Source: a virus (Duplodnaviria > Heunggongvirae > Uroviricota > Caudoviricetes). From it: a stretch of 64,000 bases of DNA. The stretch is from the IMG/VR virus record IMGVR_UViG_3300033076_001232, positions 142,435-206,434 of that record. One strand, given 5' to 3'. Position numbers and translations under genes: made by a program. Position 1 is the stretch's first letter; every line of letters begins with the position of its first letter. Below the pieces are notes generated by a model. That model was not told the DNA's origin and did no database searches. It saw nothing but the letters and a program-made list of their open reading frames with translations. Shown in pieces: positions 3,429 through 49,447 of the stretch.

Positions 3429-3917
3429 GGGCCCGCTTTGGATTTGACAGGCGGAGGTAGTTCTTTGAGATGCAGGCAGTCTTAGATTGGAAAGACTTTA
3501 ATTACCTATCAAACAATAAACGCAAACGTTTACAATTCTGAGGATATCATGAGTATCCCAACTTCACTTACTCGCTCTGTAGTAGCTGAAGAGGTTGAGC
3601 TAGCTGTTGCAGCCTAACCAATTGGCGGCAACTGCCAATTATAAAAGAAAGTTGCAAGCTGGCAAGAAAAAAGGTTCGTAGTATTGCCTATTTGACATTG
3701 AGTGGAACCTTGAGGATTAGTTCAATACCCATTAAGATCGTCACTATCAATGTCAGTGAAACTTGGTTAGTACCGGGGAGTAAACCAGACCGAGCATTAA
3801 GTCTGAAAGAAAAAAGAAACGCACCAAAAGTTTGTTGATGTCGAAAAATCAACTAAGCCTGTGAATGAGTCCAATGGACATTCGATCTGGACGAGGGTTC
3901 GACTCCCTCCGGGTCCA
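3429..3917 (+). ncRNA. ssrA: tmRNA (transfer-messenger RNA, SsrA)
   Basis: 5' acceptor gggcccg pairs with 3' cgggtcc giving G3:U70; 5' ggatttgacagg matches conserved GGAUUCGACGGG; T-arm gaggg-ttcgact-ccctc; internal tag ORF ending gct gtt gca gcc taa (..LAVAA*) with uagua-GCU resume context; helix after stop codon. Confidence 0.85.
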
Positions 3918-3968
3918 CTTTTTTGAAACATTTTAGATAAATACTAATATAAAAATTAAATTATTATT

Positions 3969-5302: not shown

Positions 5303-6055
5303 ATGATAGTATGTTTTATATCGGATACTCACTGTCAGCATTCAAGTAGAAAATTAGAATTTTATCTGGACAGAATTCTGGAGAAATATCCAGATTCTAC
5401 TATAGTCCACTGTGGCGATATTTCAAGTCGGGGTAGATTTACAGAAATAGAAGATTTTCTTTCGTGGTATTCAGACCTAGGGTTTAAAAATAAAATAATG
5501 ATCTCAGGTAATCACGATTTCTTCTTCGATTATGATCGTACACCAATAACTGATATGGGTAGATCTAGACACGGAAATCCGATGTATTCGAAGGAAGATG
5601 TTTACGATTTACTTTCAAAATATCCACAGATAATTTATTTGAATGATTCGGGTATCACCTTGGATGGAATAAACTTTTGGGGTAGCCCAGTAACCCCGTG
5701 GTTCCATGACTGGGCTTTTAATAGGACTGAGGAAACGATAATAGATCATTGGAAAATGATTCCTGATAATACGAACATCCTGATAACTCATGGTCCTCCA
5801 AGAGGTATATTAGATCTTACCTACAATGGATACACCAATGTAGGTTGTATAGAACTAGCTGGAAAAACTTTTGATTTAAAAGAACTTATGGTCCATGCTT
5901 TCGGACATATTCACGAGGCATTTGGTATTGAGACTGTCGATGAGGTAACCTATATAAATGCTTCGTTTCTGAATTTCAACTATCAGCCTTTAAATTCACC
6001 GATAATATTTGACACTGAGAGTAAAAAATCTTATATTTTTTCGATTCAGGATTGA
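5303..6055 (+). CDS. Calcineurin-like metallophosphoesterase
   Basis: GD (CGDISS), GNHD, THGPP, GHIHE metallophosphatase motifs in order. Confidence 0.7.
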   Translation: MIVCFISDTHCQHSSRKLEFYLDRILEKYPDSTIVHCGDISSRGRFTEIEDFLSWYSDLGFKNKIMISGNHDFFFDYDRTPITDMGRSRHGNPMYSKEDVYDLLSKYPQIIYLNDSGITLDGINFWGSPVTPWFHDWAFNRTEETIIDHWKMIPDNTNILITHGPPRGILDLTYNGYTNVGCIELAGKTFDLKELMVHAFGHIHEAFGIETVDEVTYINASFLNFNYQPLNSPIIFDTESKKSYIFSIQD

Positions 6056-10421: not shown

Positions 10422-11000
10422 ATGGATCAAAAAATATACAATTTCATTGCAGGTGTAGATGAGGTAGGACGTGGGTGTCTCTCGGGTCCAGTCGTAGCTG
10501 CAGTAGTAATTCTTCCCGAAGGATTCTATGATTCTAGAATAAAAGACAGTAAGTTAATCAAGAGTCAAAAGAAAAGGGAAGAGGCTGAAGCACTTATCAA
10601 ACAGAACGCAATTTCTTGGGGTATAGGAGCAAGTTCCCCACAGGAGATAGATCAGATGAATATTCTGCAAGCAACTTTTTTAGCTATGAGAAGAGCTATT
10701 GATGCTTGTTCAAAAAGACCGGATTTTCTTTATGTTGATGGTGATAAATTCCCTGGCCATAATGGAATACCGTACGAGTGTGTAATAAAAGGAGACTCCA
10801 AAATACACTCTATATCTGCAGCATCTATTTTAGCCAAAGTTCATAGAGACAAGCTAATGAGACAGATTGGACTAGAACACCCATCTTATAAATGGGAGAC
10901 CAATGTTGGTTATGGAACAGCAGATCACATTAACGAGATAAAAAAATCAGGGCTAACCAAGCACCACAGAAAAACTTTTTGTTTAAACTTTATAAAATAA
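10422..11000 (+). CDS. rnhB: Ribonuclease HII
   Basis: GVDEVGRGCLSGPVVAAVV active-site motif and overall RNase HII-like length. Confidence 0.8.
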   Translation: MDQKIYNFIAGVDEVGRGCLSGPVVAAVVILPEGFYDSRIKDSKLIKSQKKREEAEALIKQNAISWGIGASSPQEIDQMNILQATFLAMRRAIDACSKRPDFLYVDGDKFPGHNGIPYECVIKGDSKIHSISAASILAKVHRDKLMRQIGLEHPSYKWETNVGYGTADHINEIKKSGLTKHHRKTFCLNFIK

Positions 11001-11004
11001 TAAA

Positions 11005-11340
11005 ATGGAATCACAAGAATTTGAAAAAGAAAATGTCATGTCTGAAAGCGAAGAATTGAAAATATTAGGTATAGATCAATTCGATAGAGCTGAATGGGTA
11101 TTTCAATTTGATGACGAGGAACCCATAGTTATGGCCTGGAGTACTTCCAAGGATGAAGCTGGCGAACTCTCCTTTATTCTTAAGGCAAACAGTGGAAGTA
11201 ACATAACTTTCAGATCCAAGGACGGTACGAAATCTCTTCAGATATTCGCCAGAAGAATGTCCGACGAGAGAAGAGCTGAATTGGATCAGATCCAAAAAAA
11301 TGAGGAAGAATTAATCGAGAAGATTAATAGTCCCGAATAA
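11005..11340 (+). CDS. Acidic hypothetical protein
   Basis: ORF track. Confidence 0.45.
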   Translation: MESQEFEKENVMSESEELKILGIDQFDRAEWVFQFDDEEPIVMAWSTSKDEAGELSFILKANSGSNITFRSKDGTKSLQIFARRMSDERRAELDQIQKNEEELIEKINSPE

Positions 11341-11353
11341 AAAATAAAACCCC

Positions 11354-12421
11354 ATGCGGAACAACACAAAATTCGACTTTGACGATATTCTAATCCAGCC
11401 TGCTGTAGTTAGTAGCATTTCCTCCAGAAGTGAGATCACTGTTACTTATGAGGATGGACATCTTCCTCTTTTCACAGCTCCTATGGATACTGTTGTTAGC
11501 TCTTCTAATGTTGAGATCTTTCAAAAACACGGGATAAGAGTTGTAAAGCCGAGGACAATGAATAATCAATACGATTACTCTGGATCTAATTTCAATGAAT
11601 TTTTATCGTTGGGATTAGATGATTTCAATACCATATTCTTAGATAAAGACCGATTTGAATCCGAGGATAAGCTATATGTTCTTATAGACATTGCAAATGG
11701 ACATATGCTAAAACTAATCGACTCAGTAAAGAAATCTAAAGAAATATACGGTGACAGATTAATTCTAATGGTTGGTAATGTTGCTAATCCCAAGACTTAT
11801 TCCGATCTATCAGATGCTGGAGCAGATTACGTAAGAGTCGGAATAGGTAATGGAGGTGGATGTCTCACTACGGTACAAACTGGTGTTGGTTATCCGATGG
11901 GATCTTTAATAAAGGAATGTTACATCGAAAGCTGTTTTATCAATAATCCTGCTAAAATAGTAGCTGATGGAGGATTTAAAAGTTACTCTGACATAATAAA
12001 AGCTTTAGCACTTGGAGCTGATTATGTGATGTTGGGTTCGATCCTTAATAAAGCCCTTGAAAGTGCAGGTGGAACTTACATGGAGGAATATACCAGCAGA
12101 TCTGAACCTAGAGAAACGATAGATCAATACTCAGAAAAAGCAAAAGAGCTTTTTGAGAATGGAACTAAGATGATCAAAAGTTTTAGAGGTATGAGTACAA
12201 AAGAGGCTCAGAAAGCTATGGGTAAAACTGTATTCAAAACTAGCGAGGGTGTTAACCGAATGCACCCAGTTGAATACACTCTAGAAGGATGGACTGATAA
12301 TTTCAGAAGTTATCTTTCATCCGCTATGAGTTATTCAAATGCTAGAAATCTAAAGGATTTTATAGGTTTGACTAAGTACAACTTCGTAACAGAGAGTTCA
12401 ATTAACAGGTATAGAAAATGA
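11354..12421 (+). CDS. guaC: GMP reductase / IMP dehydrogenase-family enzyme
   Basis: FTAPMDTV, IDIANGH, GIGNGGGCLTTVQTGVGYP, ADGG, GADYVMLGS align with GuaC motifs incl. catalytic Cys loop. Confidence 0.7.
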   Translation: MRNNTKFDFDDILIQPAVVSSISSRSEITVTYEDGHLPLFTAPMDTVVSSSNVEIFQKHGIRVVKPRTMNNQYDYSGSNFNEFLSLGLDDFNTIFLDKDRFESEDKLYVLIDIANGHMLKLIDSVKKSKEIYGDRLILMVGNVANPKTYSDLSDAGADYVRVGIGNGGGCLTTVQTGVGYPMGSLIKECYIESCFINNPAKIVADGGFKSYSDIIKALALGADYVMLGSILNKALESAGGTYMEEYTSRSEPRETIDQYSEKAKELFENGTKMIKSFRGMSTKEAQKAMGKTVFKTSEGVNRMHPVEYTLEGWTDNFRSYLSSAMSYSNARNLKDFIGLTKYNFVTESSINRYRK

Positions 12422-21252: not shown

Positions 21253-21367
21253 TTTCGTTAGAAGTCATTTCTGAATTGCTCTAGTAGATCTACTAGAAAT
21301 TATGGGACAAATCCTAGAAATTCTAGGATTTGTCCTAGAATTCAATCCGATATGAGTTTCTAACGAA
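21253..21367. promoter_or_regulatory. Nested palindromic region upstream of prs-like gene
   Basis: outer tttcgttagaa(21253-63)/ttctaacgaaa(21357-67); perfect 16-bp palindrome ctagtagatctactag (21281-96); 15-bp arms ggacaaatcctagaa / ttctaggatttgtcc (21305-35). Confidence 0.6.
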
Positions 21368-21425: not shown

Positions 21426-22391
21426 ATGGCAGAAATACTAAATCTGGTAAATCCGAAAGATAGCTTATCCTTTAAATATGAGATAAGCAGGTTCCCTGAC
21501 GGCCAGCAATCATTAAGACTGATTGAGGATGGTTACAACACATTCAATTCACTAAAGAATGCGGCGATCAAAATAAAGTCAAGACTAAACAATTTCCAGG
21601 ATTTGGAAATTATCATTTGCGCAACACAAGCTCTTAGGGAGGTTGGAGTGAATGATATCAGTCTTTACATTCCTTATTGTGTTGGTGCTAGAAGCGACCG
21701 AAAATTTTCAGAGGGTGGAATCAATTATGTTAAGACGGTGATTGCACCTATTATCAATTCACAGGGCTACTCGAGTGTCACAATACTTGATCCACATTCT
21801 GATGTGCTTGAGGCTTGCATTAACAATTTCAAAAAGATAAACAATTTCAATTTAGTCAATTTTTCTTTGAAAGAAATCCTACTTGAAGATTGGAGAAAAA
21901 CTTCGGACGATATTGGTTTCGAAGGGTGGTACAAATACGACTGGCTAAAGAACCCGGACATTGTCCTAGTTTCACCCGATGCAGGTGCTTATAAGAAAAT
22001 TTTTGATGTTGCAGAAAATTTCAGAATTAAGAGCATAGCAACAGCGGTCAAAGTTCGAGATTTGGAAACTGGAAAGATCCTGAGAACGGAGGTTCCAAAT
22101 TTACCCATTAGCACAACAGGAAAAGAATTTAGGTATGTAATTATCGATGACATTTGTGATGGCGGTAGAACATTCATTGAATTGGCAAAAGCGATCAAAG
22201 CTAGTCGCCCAACTGCTGAGATCTATTTAGTGGTCACTCATGGAATCTTCAGTGCTGGGTATGCTGAATTAGGAAAATATTTTAATGGAATCTATTGTAC
22301 AAACTCGGTAAAGGACATCGTACACGATCCAGAAGACACCGACCTCGAAAGAGAAATGAAGGAAAAAGTAAAACAATTAAACGTATTCTAA
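21426..22391 (+). CDS. Ribose-phosphate pyrophosphokinase-family protein (Prs-like; possibly ADPR-pyrophosphate synthase type)
   Basis: FPDGQ, IPYCVGARSDRK (cf. IPYFGYARQDRR), ILDPHS, VSPDAGA, VIIDDICDGGRTF PRPP-binding loop. Confidence 0.7.
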   Translation: MAEILNLVNPKDSLSFKYEISRFPDGQQSLRLIEDGYNTFNSLKNAAIKIKSRLNNFQDLEIIICATQALREVGVNDISLYIPYCVGARSDRKFSEGGINYVKTVIAPIINSQGYSSVTILDPHSDVLEACINNFKKINNFNLVNFSLKEILLEDWRKTSDDIGFEGWYKYDWLKNPDIVLVSPDAGAYKKIFDVAENFRIKSIATAVKVRDLETGKILRTEVPNLPISTTGKEFRYVIIDDICDGGRTFIELAKAIKASRPTAEIYLVVTHGIFSAGYAELGKYFNGIYCTNSVKDIVHDPEDTDLEREMKEKVKQLNVF

Positions 22392-22747
22392 TGAGTAGCA
22401 TGGAATCGCACGTAGGTAAGCTACGTAAGGTACAAAGAAACGAAGGTCAGTCAGTTGAGGATTGGTGTAGAGAAAAATGTGAAGATAGAGGAGTTCCAAG
22501 TATGTTACCTGAGTTATATGACTCTTGGAAAGAAACCTTGAAGTATCATTTAGATCTATATGAGACTTACTTTTTTATTAACGATGAGATATGGGAGGTT
22601 TTTGATCATAAAGAGTTAGGTGATGATGACATCTATGAGATGACACCAAACCCAGATGGGACCATTTCATTTACGATGAGATTTTACAATGGTGGTACTT
22701 GCTTAAGTGAATGTATTGAGGAAGGTTTAGAACAATTAAATAAATAA
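22391..22747 (+). CDS. Hypothetical protein
   Basis: TAATG overlap with prs-like stop; MSSMESH start. Confidence 0.4.
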   Translation: MSSMESHVGKLRKVQRNEGQSVEDWCREKCEDRGVPSMLPELYDSWKETLKYHLDLYETYFFINDEIWEVFDHKELGDDDIYEMTPNPDGTISFTMRFYNGGTCLSECIEEGLEQLNK

Positions 22748-22753
22748 AAACAT

Positions 22754-23149
22754 ATGACACTTACAGAAATTTTATCGATCATCTTTATCCATTGGGTAGC
22801 TGATTTCATTTTTCAAGCTGAAGTATGGGCAGAGAATAAAAGCAAGAGTCTAAAACCACTTCTAAAACACACCTACACGTACTCTGCAATATGGCTAATC
22901 GTCGGATCACTTGCTAAAGCGACCGGAGCTATCCATTTGGAACCGGGAGTTCTCAGTCTTTTTGTCCTGATAACCTTTGTGCTTCATACAGTCACTGACT
23001 ATTTCACGAGTAAGATCGTTTCCAAAAGATTTGCTAATAAGCACTACGGAAGTCCTATACCAAATTTCGGAGCGTTTACAGTTATTGGATTTGATCAGGT
23101 TCTCCACTACACGCAATTATTTTTAACCTATTATCTTCTAACAAAGTAA
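22754..23149 (+). CDS. Small polytopic membrane protein
   Basis: 3-4 hydrophobic helices. Confidence 0.5.
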   Translation: MTLTEILSIIFIHWVADFIFQAEVWAENKSKSLKPLLKHTYTYSAIWLIVGSLAKATGAIHLEPGVLSLFVLITFVLHTVTDYFTSKIVSKRFANKHYGSPIPNFGAFTVIGFDQVLHYTQLFLTYYLLTK

Positions 23150-23694
23150 TGGAACAAACAGCAATAGAAACAGGATACAACGAGATTGAAGGAGATTTAA
23201 TCGAGTTTGCAAAACAGAGGATGTTTGATGTGATAGCACATGGATGCAATTGCATGAGCACGATGGGAGCTGGTATTGCTCCGCAAATGGCAAAAGCTTT
23301 CGGATGCGACCGATTCGAAATGGAAATGTGGGGGTCAACAATTGAAAAGCTCGGTAACATAGATTACCAGACTTTCGTAATTGGAGAATTTGCAATCTGG
23401 AACCTGGAAGATGCCAAGAATAATCGAAATGAACACGAACTAACTGTGGTTAATGCCTACACCCAATATAATTACGGTAGAAATCACGCAGATGGTCACG
23501 CAGCACCTTTTGATTATGATGCTTTCACTATTTGTGTCAGAAAGATGAACGAGGTGTTTAGAGGAAAGCATATTGGACTTCCGATGATAGGTGCAGGACT
23601 AGGAGGAGGTAATTGGAATAGAATCAAAGAGATCATTCGTTACGGACTCAGAGACTGTAAAATAACAGTTGTAATCTATAAACCTAAACAATAA
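23149..23694 (+). CDS. Macro-domain (ADP-ribose binding/processing) protein
   Basis: VIAHGCNCMSTMGAGIA and IGAGLGGGNW glycine-rich loops typical of macro domains. Confidence 0.55.
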   Translation: MEQTAIETGYNEIEGDLIEFAKQRMFDVIAHGCNCMSTMGAGIAPQMAKAFGCDRFEMEMWGSTIEKLGNIDYQTFVIGEFAIWNLEDAKNNRNEHELTVVNAYTQYNYGRNHADGHAAPFDYDAFTICVRKMNEVFRGKHIGLPMIGAGLGGGNWNRIKEIIRYGLRDCKITVVIYKPKQ

Positions 23695-24209
23695 TGAAAG
23701 TAATCAAACCTACAACCGAAAACCAATCAGTAAGATCCAACGATGTCTCGGTATTTTTAGCTGGCTCGATCGAAATGGGATCTGCTGAGGATTGGCAATC
23801 TAAACTCGAAGCCAAGTTAAAGGAAACTTTAGACCACGAGGATATTGTCCTATTCAACCCTCGGAGGGAATCCTGGGATTCCTCATGGGAGCAAAGAGAA
23901 ACAAATCCTGAATTCAATTACCAGGTTAATTGGGAATTATCAGCATTAGAAATGGCTGATATTATATTCTTGAATTTCTTACCCGACACAAAGTCTCCGA
24001 TATCTCTATTGGAGCTTGGAAAGTTTGCAAATAGCGGAAGAATGATTGTTTGCTGCCCTGATGGATTCTGTAGAAAAGGAAACGTCGAGATTGTCTGCAG
24101 TAGATATAACGTTCCTTTTTACGGATCTCTAGACGAAGCAATAGGATCATTGGTTACACGAATACACAAAACAAGAGTTTCTAAAAATTCTTTTTTTCTT
24201 TTACCCTAA
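23694..24209 (+). CDS. Nucleoside 2-deoxyribosyltransferase / Rcl-family protein
   Basis: VFLAGSIE N-terminal motif and SLLELGKFANSGRMIV catalytic-Glu motif. Confidence 0.55.
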   Translation: MKVIKPTTENQSVRSNDVSVFLAGSIEMGSAEDWQSKLEAKLKETLDHEDIVLFNPRRESWDSSWEQRETNPEFNYQVNWELSALEMADIIFLNFLPDTKSPISLLELGKFANSGRMIVCCPDGFCRKGNVEIVCSRYNVPFYGSLDEAIGSLVTRIHKTRVSKNSFFLLP

Positions 24210-24219
24210 ATACTAAACT

Positions 24220-24771
24220 ATGAAATTAAAATTTAACAGCTTAACAGCACGTTTATACAGATGGTTCTATATGGAATCAGGAATGCCGGAAAATCTATGT
24301 CCATATTTTTGGAAGCTAGTGTTAATGTGGCTATTAATGGTCCCTACCGTTATTCTCACACTCCCTGTTATTGTAACCAAGCAGAAACCAGATCATACTC
24401 TTTCCCGATTAATCTTAGGTTTTGCCTTATGGGTTTTTTTCGGAATTATAATTGTCGCTTTAGCCCCTATTACAATATTCTTTTGGGGATTTCTAGGTGA
24501 AAAATCAGTAATCGGAAACCTTCAATCTTTTGGTATTTTTCTTTGGGTAGTGATTCTGATGATTTCTATAATCTTTGGTGTGGTTCACCTTTTAAAAACG
24601 ATTAAAGATAGAAGAAATCATATAAGGAGAGAGTGGATTTGGGACCATAATGGTGACTATGTTAAAAATCCAGACTATATTCCTTATGAACCACAGACAA
24701 GCATTATAATTGAATTCATCAAGGCAAAGTATAAAAAGTACTGTCCAAAGATAGAATGGTCTAGAGACTAA
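24220..24771 (+). CDS. Polytopic membrane protein
   Basis: Multiple TM helices. Confidence 0.5.
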   Translation: MKLKFNSLTARLYRWFYMESGMPENLCPYFWKLVLMWLLMVPTVILTLPVIVTKQKPDHTLSRLILGFALWVFFGIIIVALAPITIFFWGFLGEKSVIGNLQSFGIFLWVVILMISIIFGVVHLLKTIKDRRNHIRREWIWDHNGDYVKNPDYIPYEPQTSIIIEFIKAKYKKYCPKIEWSRD

Positions 24772-24789: not shown

Positions 24790-25035
24790 ATGAATACCGA
24801 AAATCAGAAAGTAAACAAGGAATATCAAATGTTAACCGTCCGTGAGCACTTCGCAGCTATGGCAATGCAAGGAATGCTGGCTAATATCGATCAATCATAC
24901 GGTAAACCGAACGTAAATCAATCATCGATGGAGGATTCTTTAAGAAGAGAACAGCAGTTCATTGATGACGTAGCAATTAAAGCAGTTAGATATTCCGATG
25001 CTTTATTAAGAGCATTAGAAACTAAATCAGAATAA
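24790..25035 (+). CDS. Small hypothetical protein
   Basis: ORF track. Confidence 0.4.
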   Translation: MNTENQKVNKEYQMLTVREHFAAMAMQGMLANIDQSYGKPNVNQSSMEDSLRREQQFIDDVAIKAVRYSDALLRALETKSE

Positions 25036-25036
25036 A

Positions 25037-25504
25037 ATGAAAAGGTTAAGTAATAAAATAAAATATTCAGATAAAATTTTAGATAATTTATCTTCATTAA
25101 ATAACAAAGGTGATGGTGAGTTTATGGATGCTGAATGTGTTGACTTGTGTGATGCACTCAACTCAATGAAGGGAGTCACAACAAATGAATCTTGTTGTGG
25201 ACACAATCATCAACCTTATCGTATTTGGTTTAAGTGTGATTCATTAGAACCTTTAACATTTATTCAATCTTGTATTGATAGAAGGTATTGGGAATATGGC
25301 AATGAATGGTACATTGAACCTTCCATTTCAGATACAAAACCATTTCTAAACTTTGCCTTGACTAGCAAGTCTACTGATTTGAAAACCATCGTGTCACAGG
25401 TTGAAAGTATGATTGATATTTTCAATTACTATTTAAACCACGAGAATAGATTTGAAATGCTGGGTCAAAAATATGAGAATTTTATTTTTACCGAAGCTGA
25501 ATAA
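25037..25504 (+). CDS. Cys-rich hypothetical protein
   Basis: ORF preceded by aataaaATGa context. Confidence 0.45.
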   Translation: MKRLSNKIKYSDKILDNLSSLNNKGDGEFMDAECVDLCDALNSMKGVTTNESCCGHNHQPYRIWFKCDSLEPLTFIQSCIDRRYWEYGNEWYIEPSISDTKPFLNFALTSKSTDLKTIVSQVESMIDIFNYYLNHENRFEMLGQKYENFIFTEAE

Positions 25505-25531
25505 AACACTAACTAAATAAATCACAATAAG

Positions 25532-25834
25532 ATGAAAATACCACAGAAGATTAGAGTCAACTATTTTGACCTGGAAGTTCTAATGGCTCAAATGCTGGGA
25601 AAAGCTGAGCAATTCGAAAATGATGATATTGAAAATTTAGAAGAGGAATTCTACGAAAAATTTGATGTTGATTCAGAGCAGTTTCAAAAAATAGTAGAGC
25701 ATCTGATGCCATACACCGTATTATCTAAATCTGATCTTTCTGATGAAATAAGAATAGGATTCGTGAATCACAATGAGGGTGTCTATATAGTAAAAGAAAA
25801 TATCCAGCTAGAGAAGGTCATCAAGGAAGCTTAA
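25532..25834 (+). CDS. Hypothetical protein
   Basis: aataagATGa context. Confidence 0.45.
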   Translation: MKIPQKIRVNYFDLEVLMAQMLGKAEQFENDDIENLEEEFYEKFDVDSEQFQKIVEHLMPYTVLSKSDLSDEIRIGFVNHNEGVYIVKENIQLEKVIKEA

Positions 25835-25877
25835 AAATAGGAACATTGGAAGAAGTTTATAACGAAATCAAAATAAG

Positions 25878-26153
25878 ATGATAAAAACAAGAGAAAAATT
25901 ATTGAATGGAAATAATTGGTGTCATATCTATGTAGATGATGATGGGATAACTAATTATCATAATACTAAAACAAACGAAACCTATAGGGTAATACCTGAT
26001 AAATCGGCTTTTGGTTTTCATTTAGAGTATTTTAAAGATGCTGAATTAAAAGCAAGAAATAGTGTTTCGTTTGATGAGATGAAATGTATTGCTCTGTTAG
26101 CAGGTAGCAACAATCTGCTGAAAAACTTAGTCGGTGGAGAAAAAACTGTTTAA
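25878..26153 (+). CDS. Hypothetical protein
   Basis: aataagATGa context. Confidence 0.45.
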   Translation: MIKTREKLLNGNNWCHIYVDDDGITNYHNTKTNETYRVIPDKSAFGFHLEYFKDAELKARNSVSFDEMKCIALLAGSNNLLKNLVGGEKTV

Positions 26154-26163
26154 TTAGAATAAG

Positions 26164-26337
26164 GTGGAAAAAATACAAGATGTTAAGATTGGTCAAAAAA
26201 TAATCTCTCCGAGAAACGGTAAAGGGATCATAACCTCCAAAACAAAAAGAACAATAACCGTTGTTTTCGAAAATGGAAATACTTCGAAAGTAACTTACAA
26301 ATATAATGATGCGTATTTTTACGCATCAGATTTTTAA
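26164..26337 (+). CDS. Small hypothetical protein (57 aa, GTG start)
   Basis: Gap-filling ORF; contains 8-bp hairpin gatgcgta/tacgcatc near 3' end. Confidence 0.25.
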   Translation: MEKIQDVKIGQKIISPRNGKGIITSKTKRTITVVFENGNTSKVTYKYNDAYFYASDF

Positions 26338-26354
26338 CCTTCGATCGGAATAAA

Positions 26355-26507
26355 ATGGCAGGACTATTTTTATTTACCTTTATTTTTATCATCGCACAAT
26401 TTTTTGAGAAGTCAGATTATGAAAGAATGAAAGATGCTCAAAAGCTAACTTCGTTTACTAAACAAGAAGCAGAAAATTACTACATCAAAACATTTAAATC
26501 AAAATAA
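26355..26507 (+). CDS. Small TM peptide (50 aa)
   Basis: ggaataaaATGg context; hydrophobic N-terminus; stop abuts next start. Confidence 0.35.
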   Translation: MAGLFLFTFIFIIAQFFEKSDYERMKDAQKLTSFTKQEAENYYIKTFKSK

Positions 26508-26508
26508 G

Positions 26509-27180
26509 ATGAAAAATATACACTTATTACCAACAGAAAATTATAAACAAGATTACACTTTACAAAGTGGAGAAGTTGTAGAAGTCGTTAGATTAGGTCA
26601 GTTAATAAAAAATAGTGAAACTAATGAATTATTAATAAATAAAAATTCACATTGGGCAGCTTCATGTGATACTGACGTTCTGGTTCCTCATCATATTTAT
26701 ATTACTTCGGATGAACAAATTAAAGATAGAGATTGGTACATTTATATAAAAGATGGTTTATTAATACAATATAAAAAAGAATTTAATCCGTCTGCCGCAA
26801 GTGCTTCATACAATAAAAAAATTATTCTAACAACAGACCAAGACTTAATTAAAGATGGTGTACAACCTATTGATGATGAGTTTTTGGAATGGTTTGTTAA
26901 AAATCCAAGTTGTGAAAAGGCTGAGATTGAAAATGGCTGGGGTTTAGAAGTCGACATTCAAACTCCTTATTACAAAATAATTGTCCCAAAAGAAGAACAA
27001 TTACCAACAAAGTGGTTCAATACAGAAGAAATTGAAACATGGATTGGTAATTCAGATGAAGGTGGTAGAGGTAAGTTGATTGTACTTCATCAGTGTGGTG
27101 AAAATAAAGAAGAACTTATCAGTCAGTTAACTACAATGATTGATGGTTTAAAAAATGGATTTGAATACTTCGCACAATAA
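26509..27180 (+). CDS. Hypothetical protein
   Basis: ORF track. Confidence 0.5.
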   Translation: MKNIHLLPTENYKQDYTLQSGEVVEVVRLGQLIKNSETNELLINKNSHWAASCDTDVLVPHHIYITSDEQIKDRDWYIYIKDGLLIQYKKEFNPSAASASYNKKIILTTDQDLIKDGVQPIDDEFLEWFVKNPSCEKAEIENGWGLEVDIQTPYYKIIVPKEEQLPTKWFNTEEIETWIGNSDEGGRGKLIVLHQCGENKEELISQLTTMIDGLKNGFEYFAQ

Positions 27181-27191
27181 ATTAAAATAAT

Positions 27192-27638
27192 ATGAAACAA
27201 ATTAGTAAATCAGAATGGTTTGTATTAGACAGACCACTTGCGGAGCCAAATGTAAAATGGAGTGACGAGGATGGTGAATATCACATAGAAAGATACGTTT
27301 ATCAAGATGGTGCTGTCATTTGGTTTGGTTGTGATACTAATTGGAAGAAAGAGACTGGTGGTAATTGGACAGTACTCGCAACAAATACTGATGCTAAACC
27401 ATTAGAAAAATACTTACCCGAAATAGTGTATGGTAATGATAGAACATATTGGAAAGAATGTGAAATGCCGATATACGAGAAACTTTATTTAGGATTAAAA
27501 TCGGAATCTTGTTCTTGTAATAACGGGATAATAGTATGTCCAGGATGCGAGGGTGAGAAAAAATCGGAATTCGGCGTGTGTGCCGGGTGCCTCGGAGAAG
27601 GTAATGTTACGTGCGGTAAGTGCGGCGGAAATAATTAA
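27192..27638 (+). CDS. Protein with DnaJ-type CxxCxGxG zinc-finger repeats at C-terminus
   Basis: CPGCEGEK..CAGCLGEG..CGKCGG. Confidence 0.5.
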   Translation: MKQISKSEWFVLDRPLAEPNVKWSDEDGEYHIERYVYQDGAVIWFGCDTNWKKETGGNWTVLATNTDAKPLEKYLPEIVYGNDRTYWKECEMPIYEKLYLGLKSESCSCNNGIIVCPGCEGEKKSEFGVCAGCLGEGNVTCGKCGGNN

Positions 27639-27649
27639 ATTTGGATAAG

Positions 27650-27769
27650 ATGAGAAAAACATTAATAATAATTTCACTACCATTTAGATGGTTAGCTTAT
27701 CAGTTCCTTCAGTGGCTATTAAGAAGACACGATGACTATAACGAGAACTTTAAAAAGTATAACCTTTAA
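27650..27769 (+). CDS. Micro-ORF (39 aa)
   Basis: ataagATGa context; gap-filling. Confidence 0.25.
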   Translation: MRKTLIIISLPFRWLAYQFLQWLLRRHDDYNENFKKYNL

Positions 27770-27781
27770 AATCGAAATAAT

Positions 27782-27973
27782 ATGAAGATAGTAAGCTTAT
27801 ATCCATATGATGATGTATACCAAGTAGTAAGTGAAGATGAAGAAACAATTTACTATCAAGGTAGCAAAAAGGATTGTGAAAATAGGATTAAAAAAATTGA
27901 GCTAAATGAGCAAATGAGAGATAACTTAAAAGCAAAACTTTTTCTCACATCTATACTACACCGAAACATTTAA
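27782..27973 (+). CDS. Small hypothetical protein
   Basis: aataatATGa context. Confidence 0.4.
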   Translation: MKIVSLYPYDDVYQVVSEDEETIYYQGSKKDCENRIKKIELNEQMRDNLKAKLFLTSILHRNI

Positions 27974-27984
27974 ATCGGAATAAA

Positions 27985-28092
27985 ATGACAATAGATATAA
28001 TTTTGATACCAATATGGTTGTTTTCATCAGGTGTTTTGGTAGGTATATTAATTGCTGAAAGCATTATTAACAAAAAGAAAAACAAATCATAA
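27985..28092 (+). CDS. Micro-ORF TM peptide (35 aa)
   Basis: ggaataaaATGa context; single TM helix. Confidence 0.3.
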   Translation: MTIDIILIPIWLFSSGVLVGILIAESIINKKKNKS

Positions 28093-28096
28093 TAAG

Positions 28097-28225
28097 ATGA
28101 CGGCAATACTTATTAAAGCTGAAATGACCGATGAACAGCTAGAGGCTCTCGTTTCGGAGATCACGAGAATAGCAGAAGGAATAGGAATTAACTTAACAAT
28201 ACAATCGAAGGAAGATGAGCTTTAA
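28097..28225 (+). CDS. Micro-ORF (42 aa)
   Basis: aataagATGa context. Confidence 0.25.
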   Translation: MTAILIKAEMTDEQLEALVSEITRIAEGIGINLTIQSKEDEL

Positions 28226-28373
28226 AGCAATTAAAACCATATTTTGGTTCCGATTTTTTTCAGTATTTGACGTGCTGTTCTCGGAAAGATTCGAACTAAC
28301 TACTTGGGATAAAGAAGGTAGACAAACTTCTAAAACAAAATTCTCCAGAAGGGAGATAAAAGAAAAACTTTAA
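28215..28373 (+). CDS. Micro-ORF (52 aa)
   Basis: Gap-filling ORF overlapping previous by 11 nt. Confidence 0.25.
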   Translation: MSFKAIKTIFWFRFFSVFDVLFSERFELTTWDKEGRQTSKTKFSRREIKEKL

Positions 28374-28387
28374 TTAAAATACAGAAA

Positions 28388-28570
28388 ATGGGATTTTTAT
28401 CAAACTTAGTAAGCGCAACAGTAAAGACAGCACTAACCCCAGTGGCAGTCGTTAAGGATGTTGTTAATGTAGTAAAAGGGGAAGAAGCTGATTCAACTAA
28501 GAATCTTTTAAATAGTGCAGGAGAAGATCTTAAGGATGCAGGAGACGATTTAGTTGACGGCAACGTCTAG
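28388..28570 (+). CDS. Small hypothetical protein (60 aa)
   Basis: ORF track. Confidence 0.35.
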   Translation: MGFLSNLVSATVKTALTPVAVVKDVVNVVKGEEADSTKNLLNSAGEDLKDAGDDLVDGNV

Positions 28571-28641
28571 ATCAATTTTTTTCCCCCGTAAAGCAGTTTT
28601 AATTTTGGGTTCTAAATTAGGAATCCGCTAAAAAATAAAGA

Positions 28642-29046
28642 ATGAAATCTTTCAGTAAATTAGATGTAGATAAAGTCATCAGGATCGAATTAATCGAGCC
28701 GAAGTTATCTAGTTATAAATGGCTACCAAAGAAACAAAAAACATTTCTCTTTGGTCTCATCAAAAGAAACCGATGGAACTCCGAAGGCTTTTATCGTCAT
28801 GGATGCTATCAAGAATGTTACGAAAGCGGTTGCTTTGACGCAACCCCGGACAGCGAGAGGTGGCTTACAGAAAGAGGATACTATGTCTACCCAGATAAGA
28901 GTGTTTGGCATCCTGCTACCGTCCACGTAGATCTTGATCACGGGGTAAGATCTACAATAGCCTTTGGTAATACGGATGAAGCAAAGGAGTGGATTTCAAA
29001 ATTGGAGGAAATGTGTGGCAAAAAGTTTATCAACTACGGAAAATAA
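28642..29046 (+). CDS. Hypothetical protein
   Basis: ORF track. Confidence 0.45.
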   Translation: MKSFSKLDVDKVIRIELIEPKLSSYKWLPKKQKTFLFGLIKRNRWNSEGFYRHGCYQECYESGCFDATPDSERWLTERGYYVYPDKSVWHPATVHVDLDHGVRSTIAFGNTDEAKEWISKLEEMCGKKFINYGK

Positions 29047-29050
29047 AAAA

Positions 29051-29422
29051 ATGGAGATATTATTTAATCACGCCTTTATAAGAGTATTAGTTTACCCTAA
29101 AAAGAGATACAATGGCTCATGTCTCTATATCAAAAAAGGTTATAAAAATCTAGTCGGCCGCAAGTTTTGGATTTTTCCGGAATATGAAAAAATAGACTAT
29201 GCAGTTTTAACAACTTGGCCGGAGAGATTTGTATGTAGTGTTGAAGACTATGAGAGCGATGAAAAATACATTGAGAACAACGTAATCTATTACAAGCCTC
29301 ACTGCACAATAATCATGAATGACAAATCTGCCAGATCTGTAATTTTTGATACCCCCGAGGAACTGGAAAACTATGTGTCCGAACTTAAAGGAGGAATTCC
29401 ACACCTAGTGATAGAAGAATAA
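29051..29422 (+). CDS. Hypothetical protein (start trimmed to ATG 29051)
   Basis: In-frame ATG immediately after upstream stop. Confidence 0.4.
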   Translation: MEILFNHAFIRVLVYPKKRYNGSCLYIKKGYKNLVGRKFWIFPEYEKIDYAVLTTWPERFVCSVEDYESDEKYIENNVIYYKPHCTIIMNDKSARSVIFDTPEELENYVSELKGGIPHLVIEE

Positions 29423-29448: not shown

Positions 29449-31020
29449 ATGAAAGGAATAAACCCAGCCCTTCTAACCGACGGTTATAAAACAGGGCACC
29501 ATCAGCAATACCCGGAGGGAACAACTCTAGTGTATTCTAACTTTACCCCAAGAAGTAACAAGTATGCACCTAAGGGATGCGATCATGTTGTTTCTTTTGG
29601 TCAGCAACTTATCATGAAGCAGATTCACGAGAGCTTCCAAAAAGATTTCTTCGATCAGCCTAAAGATGAGGTGTGCTCGGAAATTAAGAGAGAGCTTTCT
29701 CTTTATCTAGGAGTCGATTACGATGTTAGTCACTTCGAAGCCCTTCACGATCTTGGATATTTACCTATTAAGGTTAAAGCAATCAAAGAGGGAACTTTAG
29801 TGCCAATCAAGGTTCCTGTCTTGACTATCTATAATACGGATCCCAACTTTTACTGGGTAACCAACTATTTGGAAACACTAATCTCAAATCTTCTTTGGAA
29901 GCCAATGACTTCCGCAACAATTGCTTACCAATACAAGAGAGTTCTTACCGATTGGGCTCTTAAAACCGACAAGGAAAACAAAACATTTGTTCAGTGGCAA
30001 GGTCACGATTTCTCTATGAGAGGTATGGATTCAGTGGATGCTGTAATTTCTTCCGGTCTTGGACACCTAACATCTTTTACTGGAACAGATTCCCTTCCTG
30101 CAATTTACGGAGCTCGTAAGTATTACGGAGCGGAAGGATTTGTCGCAGCGTCAGTGCCAGCAACAGAACACTCGGTAATGTGTGCTGGCGGGAAAGAGGA
30201 TGAGATTGAGACATTCCGAAGACTGATTAAGACTTACCCTGCTGGTATCTTGTCAGTAGTATCTGATACTTGGGATTTGTGGAAAGTGTGTACGGAGCAT
30301 GTGGTTACTTTGAAAGAAGAGATTTTGGCTCGTGATGGTAAGTTGGTTATTCGTCCTGATAGTGGTGACCCGGTTGATATCCTTTGCGGTACAGAAGATT
30401 ATACAAAATCTAAATTACCTTATGATGAGGTTAAAGATGTAGAAGTTATGCACCCTAGCCAAAAAGGTGTAATTGAACTTCTTTGGGATGTATTTGGAGG
30501 AACTGTTAACGAACAAGGTTACAAAGTACTTGATCCACATATCGGAGCAATCTATGGCGATAGCATTACTATCGATCGTGCTGAGCAAATCTGCAGCAGA
30601 TTAGCTTCAAAGGGATTTGCATCAACAAACGTAGTGCTTGGGGTAGGATCTTTCACTTACCAGTACAACACCCGCGATACATTTGGTTTTGCAATGAAGG
30701 CAACTTATGTTGAGGTTAAGGTTCCTAAATATGGTGATTTTGCGGACCAAGGGTTGAATACCGAAATTGAAGGTAGAGAAATCTTCAAAGATCCAATCAC
30801 CGATGATGGAACGAAGAAATCTGCAACTGGCTTACTAAGCGTAGTTAGCCGTCCAGGTGAAGGTTTAACCCTAGTTGATAAGTGCGACTGGAAACATGAA
30901 AATGTCGGAGCATTGGAAACAATCTACCACGACGGAAAATCTAGCTCCGAGATCACTCTTTCTGAAATTAGAAACAATCTTGAATTTTCTTTGATTAAAG
31001 AGAGAGAAATTATTTTTTAA
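29449..31020 (+). CDS. Nicotinamide phosphoribosyltransferase-family protein (NAMPT/NadV-like; possibly Namat-type)
   Basis: VPATEHSVM, SFTGTDS, IRPDSGDPV motifs conserved with NAMPT. Confidence 0.7.
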   Translation: MKGINPALLTDGYKTGHHQQYPEGTTLVYSNFTPRSNKYAPKGCDHVVSFGQQLIMKQIHESFQKDFFDQPKDEVCSEIKRELSLYLGVDYDVSHFEALHDLGYLPIKVKAIKEGTLVPIKVPVLTIYNTDPNFYWVTNYLETLISNLLWKPMTSATIAYQYKRVLTDWALKTDKENKTFVQWQGHDFSMRGMDSVDAVISSGLGHLTSFTGTDSLPAIYGARKYYGAEGFVAASVPATEHSVMCAGGKEDEIETFRRLIKTYPAGILSVVSDTWDLWKVCTEHVVTLKEEILARDGKLVIRPDSGDPVDILCGTEDYTKSKLPYDEVKDVEVMHPSQKGVIELLWDVFGGTVNEQGYKVLDPHIGAIYGDSITIDRAEQICSRLASKGFASTNVVLGVGSFTYQYNTRDTFGFAMKATYVEVKVPKYGDFADQGLNTEIEGREIFKDPITDDGTKKSATGLLSVVSRPGEGLTLVDKCDWKHENVGALETIYHDGKSSSEITLSEIRNNLEFSLIKEREIIF

Positions 31021-31067: not shown

Positions 31068-32939
31068 ATGAACACAGCTTTAATTTTTGACTACTGGTGG
31101 ACAATCATACCAGTTTTAGCGTTGATCTTCTATAAGTTCACGCTTCGATTCTTCTTCGGTATGGTAATAGTACCAGAGGACAAAATTGGTTTAGTTACCA
31201 AGAAATTCGTACTCTTCGGAGCTAACAGATCACTTCCCGATGGTAAGATCGTAGCTCTAAATGGTGAACCTGGTTACCAGGCAGACACATTAGCTCCTGG
31301 TCTATATTGGGCTTTCTGGGTTTGGCAATACTCTATAGAGATGCAGAATCTGGTAGTTATCGAGAAGGGAAAACTTGGTTTAGTAACAGCGAAGGACGGT
31401 GTTCCATTACCTACTGGATCAATTTTAGCTAGACACGTAGAGTGTGATAATTTCCAAGATACTCGTGCATTCTTAACCAATGGAGGTCAAAGAGGTAAGC
31501 AGGTTGGATATCTTAACAACGGGGTATATCGTATCAACACTCAACTCTTTGATGTATACCACGCTGATATTACATACATCGAAGATGGTATGGTCGGTGT
31601 TATTACAACTCTAGACGGACGTCCATTAGATCAAGGTAACATCGCAGGTTCTCTGGTAGAAGGACACAATAACTTCCAGGATTTTGATTCATTCTTAGAG
31701 AATGGAGGACAAAGAGGTCTACAGATTCAGGTGATCCAGGCCGGTAGCTATTCATTAAACCCTTGGGCTATTGAGGTAGAGAAAAAAGAAATGACCTCAA
31801 TTCCTATCGGTCACGTTGGTGTTGTTATCTCCTACGTTGGCGATGAAGGTATTGATCAAACCGGTGACACTTTTAAACATGGTAACATTGTTAAGAAAGG
31901 ACAAAAAGGAGTTTGGATCTCTCCGCTAGATCCTGGTAAATATGCAATCAACCCCTACACACAAAAGATCGAAGTTGTCCCAACAACTAACCTTGTTTTG
32001 AACTGGGCAAATGCAAGAACAGAGTCTCACGCATTAGATAAGAACCTAAGCACAATCACGGTTCGTTCTAAAGACGGTTTCCCATTCAATTTGGATGTAT
32101 CCCAGATTATCCACATTCCTTCTACTGAAGCACCTAAGGTAATTGCTCGATTTGGTTCTATGTCAAACCTTGTCTCTCAGGTACTTGAGCCAACTATCGG
32201 TAACTACTTCCGTAACTCTGCACAGGATTCAGATGTTATTGCTTTCTTAAGCACACGTCAAGCCAGACAAAATGCTGCTAAAGATGCAATCAGCAAAGTT
32301 CTTGACGAGTACAACGTACACGCTGTAGATACTCTAATTGGAGACATCACACCTCCTGCAGAACTTATGAAAACTCTAACCGATCGTAAGATCGCTCAGG
32401 AGGAAGAGGTTACATTTGAAACTCAGAAGAAAGCTCAGGATCAACGTAAAACTCTAGAGTCAGCTAAAGCTCTTGCAGATATGCAGGGACAAATGGTACA
32501 AGCTCAACAATCGGTAGAGATCTCACAGAGACAAGCCGAGGCAGAGGTTAAGAAATCAGAAGGTGAAGCCAAAGCGATGGAGCTTAAGGCTGGAGCTCAG
32601 GCAAAAGCTAAAAAGCTGATGGCTGAAGCCGATGCTTCTCAGATTAAACTTACCGGTGAGGCTGAAGCAAGCAAGATCGAGAAAATCGGTAGAGCAACAG
32701 CAGAAGCTTATCAATTACAGGTACAAGCAATGGGCAACGACAACTTTGCTAAGCTTAAAGTTACTGAGGAGATAGGTAAAAATGGAATCAAGATTATTCC
32801 AGAAATCCTAATCTCAGGAAGCGAAGGTGGCAATGGCCCAATAAGCGGATTGCTTGGAATGGAGCTTCTTAATCAAATAAGAAACAGAGAGGCTGACACT
32901 TCCTCCGGACAAGACAAAATCCAAGAGGATAAAAAATAA
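31068..32939 (+). CDS. SPFH/flotillin-like membrane protein with internal repeats and A/E/K-rich coiled-coil tail
   Basis: N-terminal TM helix; repeated NFQD..FL.NGGQRG.Q units; flotillin-like AEAE/KAK-rich C-terminus. Confidence 0.5.
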   Translation: MNTALIFDYWWTIIPVLALIFYKFTLRFFFGMVIVPEDKIGLVTKKFVLFGANRSLPDGKIVALNGEPGYQADTLAPGLYWAFWVWQYSIEMQNLVVIEKGKLGLVTAKDGVPLPTGSILARHVECDNFQDTRAFLTNGGQRGKQVGYLNNGVYRINTQLFDVYHADITYIEDGMVGVITTLDGRPLDQGNIAGSLVEGHNNFQDFDSFLENGGQRGLQIQVIQAGSYSLNPWAIEVEKKEMTSIPIGHVGVVISYVGDEGIDQTGDTFKHGNIVKKGQKGVWISPLDPGKYAINPYTQKIEVVPTTNLVLNWANARTESHALDKNLSTITVRSKDGFPFNLDVSQIIHIPSTEAPKVIARFGSMSNLVSQVLEPTIGNYFRNSAQDSDVIAFLSTRQARQNAAKDAISKVLDEYNVHAVDTLIGDITPPAELMKTLTDRKIAQEEEVTFETQKKAQDQRKTLESAKALADMQGQMVQAQQSVEISQRQAEAEVKKSEGEAKAMELKAGAQAKAKKLMAEADASQIKLTGEAEASKIEKIGRATAEAYQLQVQAMGNDNFAKLKVTEEIGKNGIKIIPEILISGSEGGNGPISGLLGMELLNQIRNREADTSSGQDKIQEDKK

Positions 32940-32954
32940 AAAACACAATTTAAA

Positions 32955-32982
32955 AGATAGGTCTTCGGACCTATCTTTTTTT
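32955..32982 (+). terminator. Rho-independent terminator (UUCG tetraloop)
   Basis: 9-bp stem agataggtc/gacctatct, loop ttcg, T-run. Confidence 0.85.
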
Positions 32983-43653: not shown

Positions 43654-44016
43654 ATGAGAAAAATTAAGATTCTTTACGATTTTCTTAGATTGTGGATTAT
43701 GTGGGGAGATAGGAAGGAAGCATGGCAAGACGCAAATTCTATAAACGATCCTAATTTCCAGAAAGAACTGGAAGAGATATCCAATAAGTTAGATCAGGTT
43801 CTCTTAGAAAAGAATCCAAATTTTAAAGAAGTCTGTCTTGAGATATCTCAAAGACTTTCCAATTTACCTTACGATAATGGAGACATATCAGACATCGGTA
43901 ACGAGATAGGTATTGTTCTGGGTAAACATATCCAGGATGGGTCTTTCGGATGGGAAAGAGGAGATTTAAATTCTGGACTAAATCATGGTATATCAATAGC
44001 TAATGGAACACACTAA
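43654..44016 (+). CDS. Hypothetical protein
   Basis: ORF track. Confidence 0.4.
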   Translation: MRKIKILYDFLRLWIMWGDRKEAWQDANSINDPNFQKELEEISNKLDQVLLEKNPNFKEVCLEISQRLSNLPYDNGDISDIGNEIGIVLGKHIQDGSFGWERGDLNSGLNHGISIANGTH

Positions 44017-49445: not shown

Positions 49446-49447
49446 TT

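Follow-up and report, generated by a model that had tools for sequence, protein, structure and literature searches.

The 64,000-nucleotide stretch of phage DNA analysed here (the window: positions 142,435 to 206,434 of IMG/VR record IMGVR_UViG_3300033076_001232, Caudoviricetes) contains a region that is best read as a split version of NARP1-AP, a phage pathway that reconstitutes nicotinamide adenine dinucleotide (NAD+), joined by an accessory gene whose product resembles nucleoside 2-deoxyribosyltransferases (NDTs) and Rcl. This reading, which is drawn from sequence comparison, is given a probability of roughly 0.75. Its parts differ in strength. The assignment of the two core enzymes, Adps and Namat, to the known NARP1-AP system is highly probable, and the participation of the NDT-like protein in the rebuilding of NAD+ is somewhat favoured. 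The NARP1-AP core is already known; the NDT-like companion of Namat, the split layout and a related operon in Bacteroidota are new.

Depletion of NAD+ is one of the defences that bacteria most often use against phages, and of the known ways in which phages reverse it, NARP1 is the main one. NARP1 comprises Adps and Namat, and is defined operationally by the presence of Namat within ten genes (Osterman et al. 2024, bioRxiv 10.1101/2024.02.11.579819). Where a host defence cleaves NAD+, the phage pathway would rebuild it in two steps: Adps is predicted to pyrophosphorylate ADP-ribose (ADPR) with ATP, giving ADPR pyrophosphate (ADPR-PP) and AMP, and Namat is predicted to join ADPR-PP to nicotinamide, giving NAD+ and pyrophosphate. 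The original prediction, which noted a Prs-like gene, a macro-domain gene and an NDT-like gene upstream of a NAMPT-like gene, had preferred such a module to a plain supply of phosphoribosyl pyrophosphate (PRPP), and the published Adps and Namat signatures carried by the two enzymes bear out that preference.

The core enzymes Adps and Namat

The protein encoded at 21426-22391 was assigned by signature, cut-off and hidden Markov model (HMM) tests, by which it is an ADPR pyrophosphokinase of the Adps type and not a housekeeping Prs. It scores 82 bits against TIGR01251, under the cut-off of 113, as does the validated Adps of Vibrio phage Gary (100 bits). Its scores against the PRK Prs equivalogs are 29-65 bits, where the cut-offs are 296-536, and its matches to the Pfam Prs families lie under the gathering scores, with no match to Pribosyltran_N. 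Adps enzymes are defined by a remodelled PP loop, a lysine in the catalytic hairpin and loss of the C-terminal alpha11-alpha12 region (Liu et al. 2026, PMC13586617). In an alignment of the window protein with Gary, Felixounavirus H12 and Leptolyngbya-phage proteins and E. coli Prs, the window PP loop (DDICDGGRTF, amino acids 241-250) is identical to that of Felixounavirus H12 Adps; the corresponding loops read DDISDGGASF in Gary Adps and DDMIDTGGTL in E. coli Prs. The THGIFS motif is also present. K209 of the window protein (AVKVRD) aligns with K192 of Gary Adps, the equivalent of K185 in ICP1, and this lysine, being found in Prs as well, is non-discriminating. The C-terminus of the window protein coincides with that of the other Adps proteins, whereas E. 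coli Prs runs on for ~25 residues; the alpha11-alpha12 region is absent from the window protein. An HMM built solely from Namat-linked Adps proteins, each no more than 41% identical to the window protein, gives the latter 228 bits and E. coli Prs 149 bits. Grouping with housekeeping Prs had been named in advance as the outcome that would count against an Adps; the signatures, the curated cut-offs and the Namat-linked HMM all point to Adps.

The protein encoded at 29449-31020 is, by its motifs and nearest structures, Namat (nicotinamide ADPR-transferase). Namat proteins have a clamp-helix consensus GS-X-phi-X-phi-X-phi-TRD, with aromatic X (Lan et al. 2026, PMC12774641), to which GSFTYQYNTRD at amino acids 400-410 of the window protein is an exact fit. 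The best matches in the PDB are 9W5X and 9W5W, both of SPbetaL1 Namat (E=5e-163, 546 bits), as against ~210-222 bits and E values of about 1e-61 to 1e-65 for bacterial and human Nampts. The catalytic histidine lies within ATEHSV (amino acids 238-243). The selectivity-clamp loop between beta1 and beta2, the part of Namat expected to supply a residue stacking on adenine, is variable.

The macro-domain protein

The macro protein encoded at 23149-23694 is, with fair confidence, a predicted phosphatase that acts on ADPR 1''-phosphate (ADPR-1''P) and releases ADPR. Adpp, a Poa1p-like protein with this activity, is found in 15% of NARP1 phages and makes ADPR from the ADPR-1''P that aRES NADases produce; in Gary Adpp, the mutation H24A abolishes function (Osterman et al. 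2026, bioRxiv 10.64898/2026.01.28.702374). The window protein matches the Pfam Macro family below threshold only. Its similarity to the validated Gary Adpp extends over the whole protein (29% identity, E=5e-16); it keeps all 10 positions that are invariant among ten NARP1-associated Adpp proteins and conserves the essential His24 of Gary Adpp as H31 (AHGCNC). Its sole NCBIfam and PADLOC matches are weak and partial ones to the DarG macro domain, and Gary Adpp gives the same DarG match. The closest homologue in an isolated phage is annotated with CDD cd02901, which we take to be the Poa1p-like macro family. The expectation that the macro domain handles an ADPR derivative thus fits the Adpp phosphatase of NARP1-AP in homology, invariant positions and essential histidine. 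In the pathway, the protein would most likely strip the 1''-phosphate from ADPR-1''P, so that ADPR could enter the Adps step. Such ADPR-1''P could come from RES-type NADases, and could also arise downstream of Tpt1.

The NDT-like gene beside Namat in phages

Loci retrieved with the NDT-like protein (encoded at 23694-24209) have Namat within 10 kb in 25 of 30 viral or metagenomic cases. The gene orders seen include Adps-Macro-NDT-Namat, Adps-Macro-Namat-NDT, Adps-(Macro)-Namat-SPFH-NDT and Macro-Namat-NDT, and one locus (L007) has a compact arrangement of Adps, Macro, one small open reading frame (ORF), NDT and Namat. A search anchored on Namat lifts the selection bias of one anchored on NDT. 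It finds the NDT-like gene in 55 of the 80 closest IMG/VR relatives, and in 33 of the 48 viral loci that have 3 kb or more of sequence on each side. Where present, the NDT-like gene lies a median of ~270 bp from Namat, in 20 distinct gene-order patterns, and relatives of the window phage show every intermediate from compact to split. The macro gene is found less often than the NDT-like gene, in only 26 of the 80. As a background figure, of 50,697 records of isolated phages only 48 encode the NDT-like protein. One viral outlier (L026) gives no PP-loop match and has a degenerate Namat motif. A rough neighbour-joining tree of NDT-like proteins does not unite the NARP1-linked copies, which are interspersed in several places with stand-alone ones.

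Bacteroidota chromosomal operons

The same association recurs in bacteria. Among 80 loci that encode an NDT-like protein in GTDB species-representative genomes, the NDT-like gene adjoins Namat in 21, of which 19 also have Adps, and the gaps between NDT and Namat are usually -25 to 36 bp. Several of these loci are on chromosomal contigs of 0.5-2.1 Mb, and one comes from an isolate, Ferruginibacter sp. SUN106. The bacterial Adps proteins are 32-41% identical to that of the window, and the Namat proteins 51-55%. A Namat-type motif is present in all 21 loci and the DDICDGG PP loop in 18 of the 19 Adps proteins, the other (L097) having DDLADGGRTF.

Neighbour clustering and Pfam matches outline a larger operon on a number of Bacteroidota genome contigs (L051-L053, L057, L067, L070, L094, L096, L101, L102, L117, L120 and L122). 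It comprises NrtR, Adps, NADAR, Tpt1/KptA, (a 2OG oxygenase), a metallophosphoesterase, DUF4291, the NDT-like protein, Namat, Macro, an ADP-ribosylglycohydrolase (ARG), a protein resembling TonB-dependent receptors (by sequence inspection only), PnuC and a NadR-like protein (by motifs only). NrtR proteins characterised elsewhere are ADPR-responsive. From its gene content, this operon looks like a chromosomal system that recycles ADP-ribose to NAD+ and is much larger than the two-gene bacterial NARP1. In the 64-kb window, tblastn with the bacterial operon proteins found no NADAR, Tpt1, DUF4291, ARG, PnuC or NadR.

Fold and residues of the NDT-like protein

The NDT-like family has about 5,900 database relatives and one orphan crystal structure, 4MCJ, and in most genomes its genes lack conserved neighbours. 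Sequence and profile searches of the PDB matched only this uncharacterised structure. An AlphaFold2 model of the window protein (pLDDT 88) was compared with known structures by Foldseek, which returned, in order, 4MCJ, YtoQ, the CMP N-glycosidases MilB and BcmB, NDTs and Rcl/DNPH1, with probabilities of 0.99-1.0 for MilB, the NDTs and Rcl. For YtoQ, which ranks second by structure, a search of the literature gave no information on function. A weak hhalign alignment of the family profile with rat Rcl (a sequence 100% identical to PDB 2KHZ) places F21 opposite Y13, E81 opposite D69 (catalytic), S101 opposite S87 (which binds phosphate) and E107 opposite E93 (the nucleophile). F21, E81, S101 and E107 are invariant across 50 NDT-like homologues, and E107 sits in LLELG, in agreement with the catalytic Glu ...ELG motif of the NDT/Rcl/MilB superfamily. 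In MilB and BcmB, a Phe in place of the Tyr near the end of strand 1 reportedly goes with ribo- rather than deoxyribonucleotide substrates. We infer from these features an active N-glycosidase or transglycosidase that would act on a ribosyl 5'-phospho compound; in its gene context it would be a ribonucleotide N-glycosidase that supplies or recycles a substrate of NARP1.

A different context is seen in Tunturiibacter phage Tunturi_5 (PP885688; L004:5977-9765), where a single protein carries both the PF15891 domain and an ART-PolyVal ADP-ribosyltransferase domain. The fusion protein is 1,262 amino acids long, is encoded beside the portal gene and is annotated as a NUDIX hydrolase in its record; it is possibly a polyvalent protein delivered with the virion. 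This fusion beside the portal would favour a conflict-related substrate for the NDT-like protein, and the stand-alone copies in many bacteria would favour a common metabolite. A role as an NADase was considered and rejected as the principal one, since cleavage of NAD+ inside an operon that rebuilds it would be a futile cycle. The DrHyd superfamily includes NDT-fold proteins. A 2022 survey of viral NAD and ADP-ribose systems reported only cyclase-type members of that superfamily in viruses.

Gene layout in the window

All four ORFs of the original prediction are present on the + strand of the window at the coordinates given, and their family matches are strong, so that they are not chance ORFs. 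The features of the region are as follows.

21305-21335, no strand assigned: hairpin with a perfect 14-bp stem, GGACAAATCCTAGAAnnnTTCTAGGATTTGTCC, within the 207-bp gap upstream of the Adps gene
21426-22391, + strand: Adps-type ADPR pyrophosphokinase (Prs-like), 321 amino acids, phrog_619 'ribose-phosphate pyrophosphokinase' (E=3e-62)
22391-22747, + strand: small protein, phrog_6035; its start overlaps the Adps stop (TAATG)
22754-23149, + strand: DUF3307 membrane protein, PF11750 (E=1.6e-7), phrog_2470
23149-23694, + strand: macro-domain protein of the Adpp (Poa1p-like) family, 181 amino acids, phrog_335 'phosphatase' (E=1.5e-43)
23694-24209, + strand: NDT/Rcl-like protein, 171 amino acids, PF15891 Nuc_deoxyri_tr2 (E=8e-34)
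24220-24771, + strand: multi-pass membrane protein, phrog_944
24790-29422, + strand: ~14 small co-oriented ORFs between the NDT-like gene and Namat
29449-31020, + strand: Namat (NAMPT-like), 523 amino acids, PF04095 and PF18127, phrog_448 (E=2.5e-191)
31068-32939, + strand: SPFH/Band-7 membrane protein directly after Namat, PF01145 (E=4e-27)
32952-32979, + strand: terminator-like hairpin directly 3' of the SPFH gene, a 12-bp stem followed by a T run (consensus match only)

The five genes from Adps through the NDT-like gene form a tightly packed unit and are probably translationally coupled. A TAATG stop/start overlap occurs at three junctions: Adps/phrog_6035, DUF3307/macro and macro/NDT-like. 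The original prediction did not list phrog_6035 and DUF3307, the small ORFs that separate the Prs-like gene from the macro gene. Their homologues occur near NARP1 genes in 9 and 5, respectively, of the 80 Namat-anchored viral loci, and a homologue of phrog_944 lies upstream of Adps in 10 of the 80.

The NAMPT-like gene had been placed some 5 kb downstream, and Namat does start 5.24 kb past the end of the NDT-like gene. Adps and Namat are separated by about 7 kb and ~19 ORFs. Insertions of comparable size between macro and Namat (4-7 kb) are also found in the relatives L010, L011 and L022-L024. Six ORFs of the 24790-29422 block were scanned against Pfam, and none of the six matched.

A second short palindrome, CTAGTAGATCTACTAG, at ~21280-21295, adjoins the palindrome GGACAAATCCTAGAAnnnTTCTAGGATTTGTCC. 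The two upstream of Adps may mark a transcription-unit boundary, an operator or a terminator. A scan for sigma-70 promoters gave 40 sites where 38.8 were expected by chance, so that no promoter is proposed. A PADLOC scan gave nothing informative. The SPFH/Band-7 protein that follows Namat travels with the cluster and is unusually conserved (81-87% identical in relatives, where its gene often lies between Namat and the NDT-like gene, as in L017, L021, L022, L035 and L036). At a locus without NARP1 genes (L028), a major-vault-protein-shoulder/Band-7 protein is encoded at L028:6625-9123, two genes upstream of the NDT-like gene.

When the 10-kb region was compared at the nucleotide level with isolated phages, there were 0 matches, and by this measure the phage is without a close cultured relative. 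A protein with a cohesin domain and a type IX secretion system (T9SS) Por_Secre_tail sorting domain is encoded at 59927-61849 on the - strand. The host is probably a member of the Bacteroidota because of this T9SS sorting-domain protein, the Cellulophaga phages that hold the nearest macro homologues and the relatives of the region in Bacteroidota operons.

Possible roles of the NDT-like protein and alternative explanations

The coupling of the NDT-like gene to Namat suggests two kinds of substrate. It may be that the protein acts on nicotinamide mononucleotide (NMN) or related pyridine nucleotides and provides nicotinamide for Namat, or that it cleaves N-linked ADPR derivatives or NAD analogues and provides ADPR for Adps. 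A more speculative extension, less likely than not, is that the NDT-like protein forms a third branch feeding NARP1, beside Adpp and RyDEP, and that phages captured an ancient, NrtR-headed core of Adps, NDT-like protein and Namat from Bacteroidota. In one variant, the protein would cleave signals of the cyclic ADPR (cADPR) or histidine-ADPR type, or base-exchanged NAD analogues, both silencing the signal and fuelling NAD+ resynthesis; in another, it would be the long-sought NMN nucleosidase that returns nicotinamide to Namat.

Several points weigh against a split NARP1-AP with an NDT-like accessory. Namat lies ~19 ORFs from Adps, outside the rule of ten genes by which NARP1 is defined. About 59 of the 80 bacterial loci have no conserved NAD-related neighbour of the NDT-like gene, and the neighbourhoods of the more distant NDT-like copies in five isolated phages hold 0 NARP1 genes nearby, so that the link to NARP1 is not universal for the family. 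Given the stand-alone copies in bacteria and isolated phages, the reaction of the NDT-like protein may be a generic one. Many of the linked viral loci belong to related phages, and the counts are therefore not independent. The mapping of residues onto Rcl comes from a weak hhalign alignment (probability 1.5%, E=0.035), backed by fold-level similarity only. The macro family extends far beyond NARP1, with 1,928 phage records that include T4 Tk.4-type proteins, and the identity of the window macro protein to Gary Adpp is only 29%. The activities of all four proteins are predicted only.

Three other explanations were weighed against this background. Plain nicotinamide salvage would have the Prs-like protein make PRPP and the NAMPT-like protein NMN, in the manner of NadV in NARP2, with NMNAT encoded elsewhere or supplied by the host. 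Pfam and NCBIfam do label the proteins only as Prs-like and NAPRTase/NAMPT, Namat keeps some activity with PRPP in vitro (Lan et al., PMC12774641) and the view is limited to 64 kb of the genome. Set against these are the Namat-specific clamp motif in a protein far nearer to the solved Namat than to Nampts, the Adps-type PP loop, the absent C-terminal Prs region and the scores below the Prs cut-offs; a tblastn search of the window with the proteins of the bacterial operon gave no NMNAT-, NadR- or PnuC-like gene. Salvage is thus very improbable. The NDT-like protein presents a more open case. It could be a general nucleotide-pool enzyme unrelated to NAD+, a (d)NMP N-glycosidase like Rcl or MilB that serves phage DNA synthesis, and its proximity to NARP1 would then reflect the shared synteny of an accessory region. 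Its characterised structural relatives are indeed NMP/dNMP N-glycosidases and NDTs, most bacterial copies stand alone, other nucleotide-metabolism genes are present in the window, and in isolated jumbo phages the gene is found near ribonucleotide reductase, ligase and tRNA genes and not near NARP1. This explanation is nevertheless a doubtful one: the link between NDT and Namat survives many rearrangements in phages and recurs in divergent Bacteroidota operons otherwise made of ADP-ribose and NAD genes, the NARP1-linked copies are scattered over several parts of the rough tree, and there is an independent fusion to an ADP-ribosyltransferase. The Phe at the Tyr position would also argue against deoxy-specificity, with the reservation that the alignment is weak and the rule is one established for MilB.

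The remaining alternative concerns the macro protein, which might have no role against RES-type NADases. It might instead clear ADPR-1''P or Appr>p left by NAD-dependent RNA repair (Tpt1/KptA), or remove ADP-ribose from macromolecules as DarG does, any recycling of ADPR being incidental. A Thg1-like and a HAD_SAK_2 protein encoded in the window would suit RNA repair, as would the cREC, RNA ligase and kinase genes beside the compact operon of L007 and the Tpt1/KptA and metallophosphoesterase genes of the Bacteroidota operon; the weak and partial DarG matches, which are the only ones in NCBIfam and PADLOC, and the wide occurrence of the family in phages without NARP1 also lend it some weight. 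The validated Gary Adpp, however, gives the same weak DarG match, the window protein has all the family invariants and the essential His common to NARP1-associated Adpp proteins, and tblastn gave no Tpt1 homologue in the window. The chemistry (ADPR-1''P to ADPR) and the downstream pathway would moreover be the same in both cases. A macro protein dedicated to RNA repair or to a DarG-like activity is accordingly unlikely, and the Adpp assignment within NARP1-AP is preferred. Nor does the region fit NARP2 (NadV with NMNAT/Nudix): its transferase is of the Namat type, and the visible 64 kb show no NMNAT- or NadR-like gene. NARP3 (PnuC with a NadR-like protein) was rejected because the window has neither gene.

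Comparison with known systems

The region resembles NARP1 in having both core enzymes with their family signatures and the same predicted chemistry. It differs in that Adps and Namat are not adjacent, in that four tightly coupled genes directly follow Adps and in its probable Bacteroidota host. With NARP1-AP, represented by the Adps-Adpp-Namat arrangement of Vibrio phage Gary, it shares a macro protein of the Adpp family encoded with Adps; in the window, however, Adps and the macro gene are separated by two small genes, the macro gene itself being coupled to an NDT-like gene that NARP1-AP lacks. The rule of ten genes misses split NARP1 of this kind in large phages.

The gene for the glycosidase RyDEP adjoins NARP1, and the enzyme turns a molecule derived from NAD into a substrate for NARP1 (Lopez Rivera et al. 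2026, bioRxiv 10.64898/2026.05.28.727677). The concept of a NARP1-adjacent glycosidase that feeds NARP1 is similar, the activity of the NDT-like protein being predicted only. RyDEP has an RyR-domain fold and cleaves ribose-ribose O-glycosidic bonds, whereas the window protein has an NDT/Rcl fold, whose characterised members cleave N-glycosidic bonds.

Bacterial modules related to the Bacteroidota loci have been described as nrtR-prs-nadV operons (Rodionov et al. 2008, PMC2330246) and as two-gene bacterial NARP1 (Lan et al. 2026, PMC12774641). Like these, the Bacteroidota loci start with an NrtR-type regulator, followed by Adps-type Prs-like and Namat-type NadV-like genes. Unlike the two-gene modules, they have an NDT-like gene adjoining Namat, and several carry as many as ten other ADP-ribose/NAD genes within that operon.

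The NDT-like protein shares its fold with Rcl/DNPH1 and MilB/BcmB and has counterparts, at the level of motifs, of their nucleophile (Glu), their acid (a carboxylate) and the Ser and loop that bind phosphate. It has no significant sequence similarity to them, the profile search reaching 4MCJ only, and by the weak Rcl alignment it differs from deoxy-specific members of the NDT superfamily in having Phe for Tyr. The family-specific invariants NPRR, several Trp, CCP and RxGN have no known counterpart. Searches of the literature found no paper on PF15891/Nuc_deoxyri_tr2 or on NDT-like genes with NARP1; within the searchable literature, an NDT-like companion of NARP1 in phages and Bacteroidota chromosomes has not been described before. 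Each NARP1 accessory so far, Adpp and RyDEP, revealed new defence chemistry and a counter-measure to it, and the NDT-like gene, which accompanies Namat in about two thirds of the phage clade, is a candidate for another such layer. If its role in the pathway is true, it would provide a first function for the large uncharacterised PF15891 family.

Other genes in the window

A phage-borne tmRNA gene lies at 3429-3920 on the + strand, with the tag peptide EEVELAVAA* predicted by ARAGORN and a score of 87.3 bits against Rfam RF00023 (gathering score 47). Auxiliary genes located among 44003-45163, 48576-50083, 10422-12421 and 5303-6055 encode a thymidylate-synthase homologue that extends ~120 residues beyond the Pfam model, RNase HII, the Thg1-like and HAD_SAK_2 RNA-repair proteins, an IMPDH/GMP-reductase-like protein and a calcineurin-like phosphoesterase.

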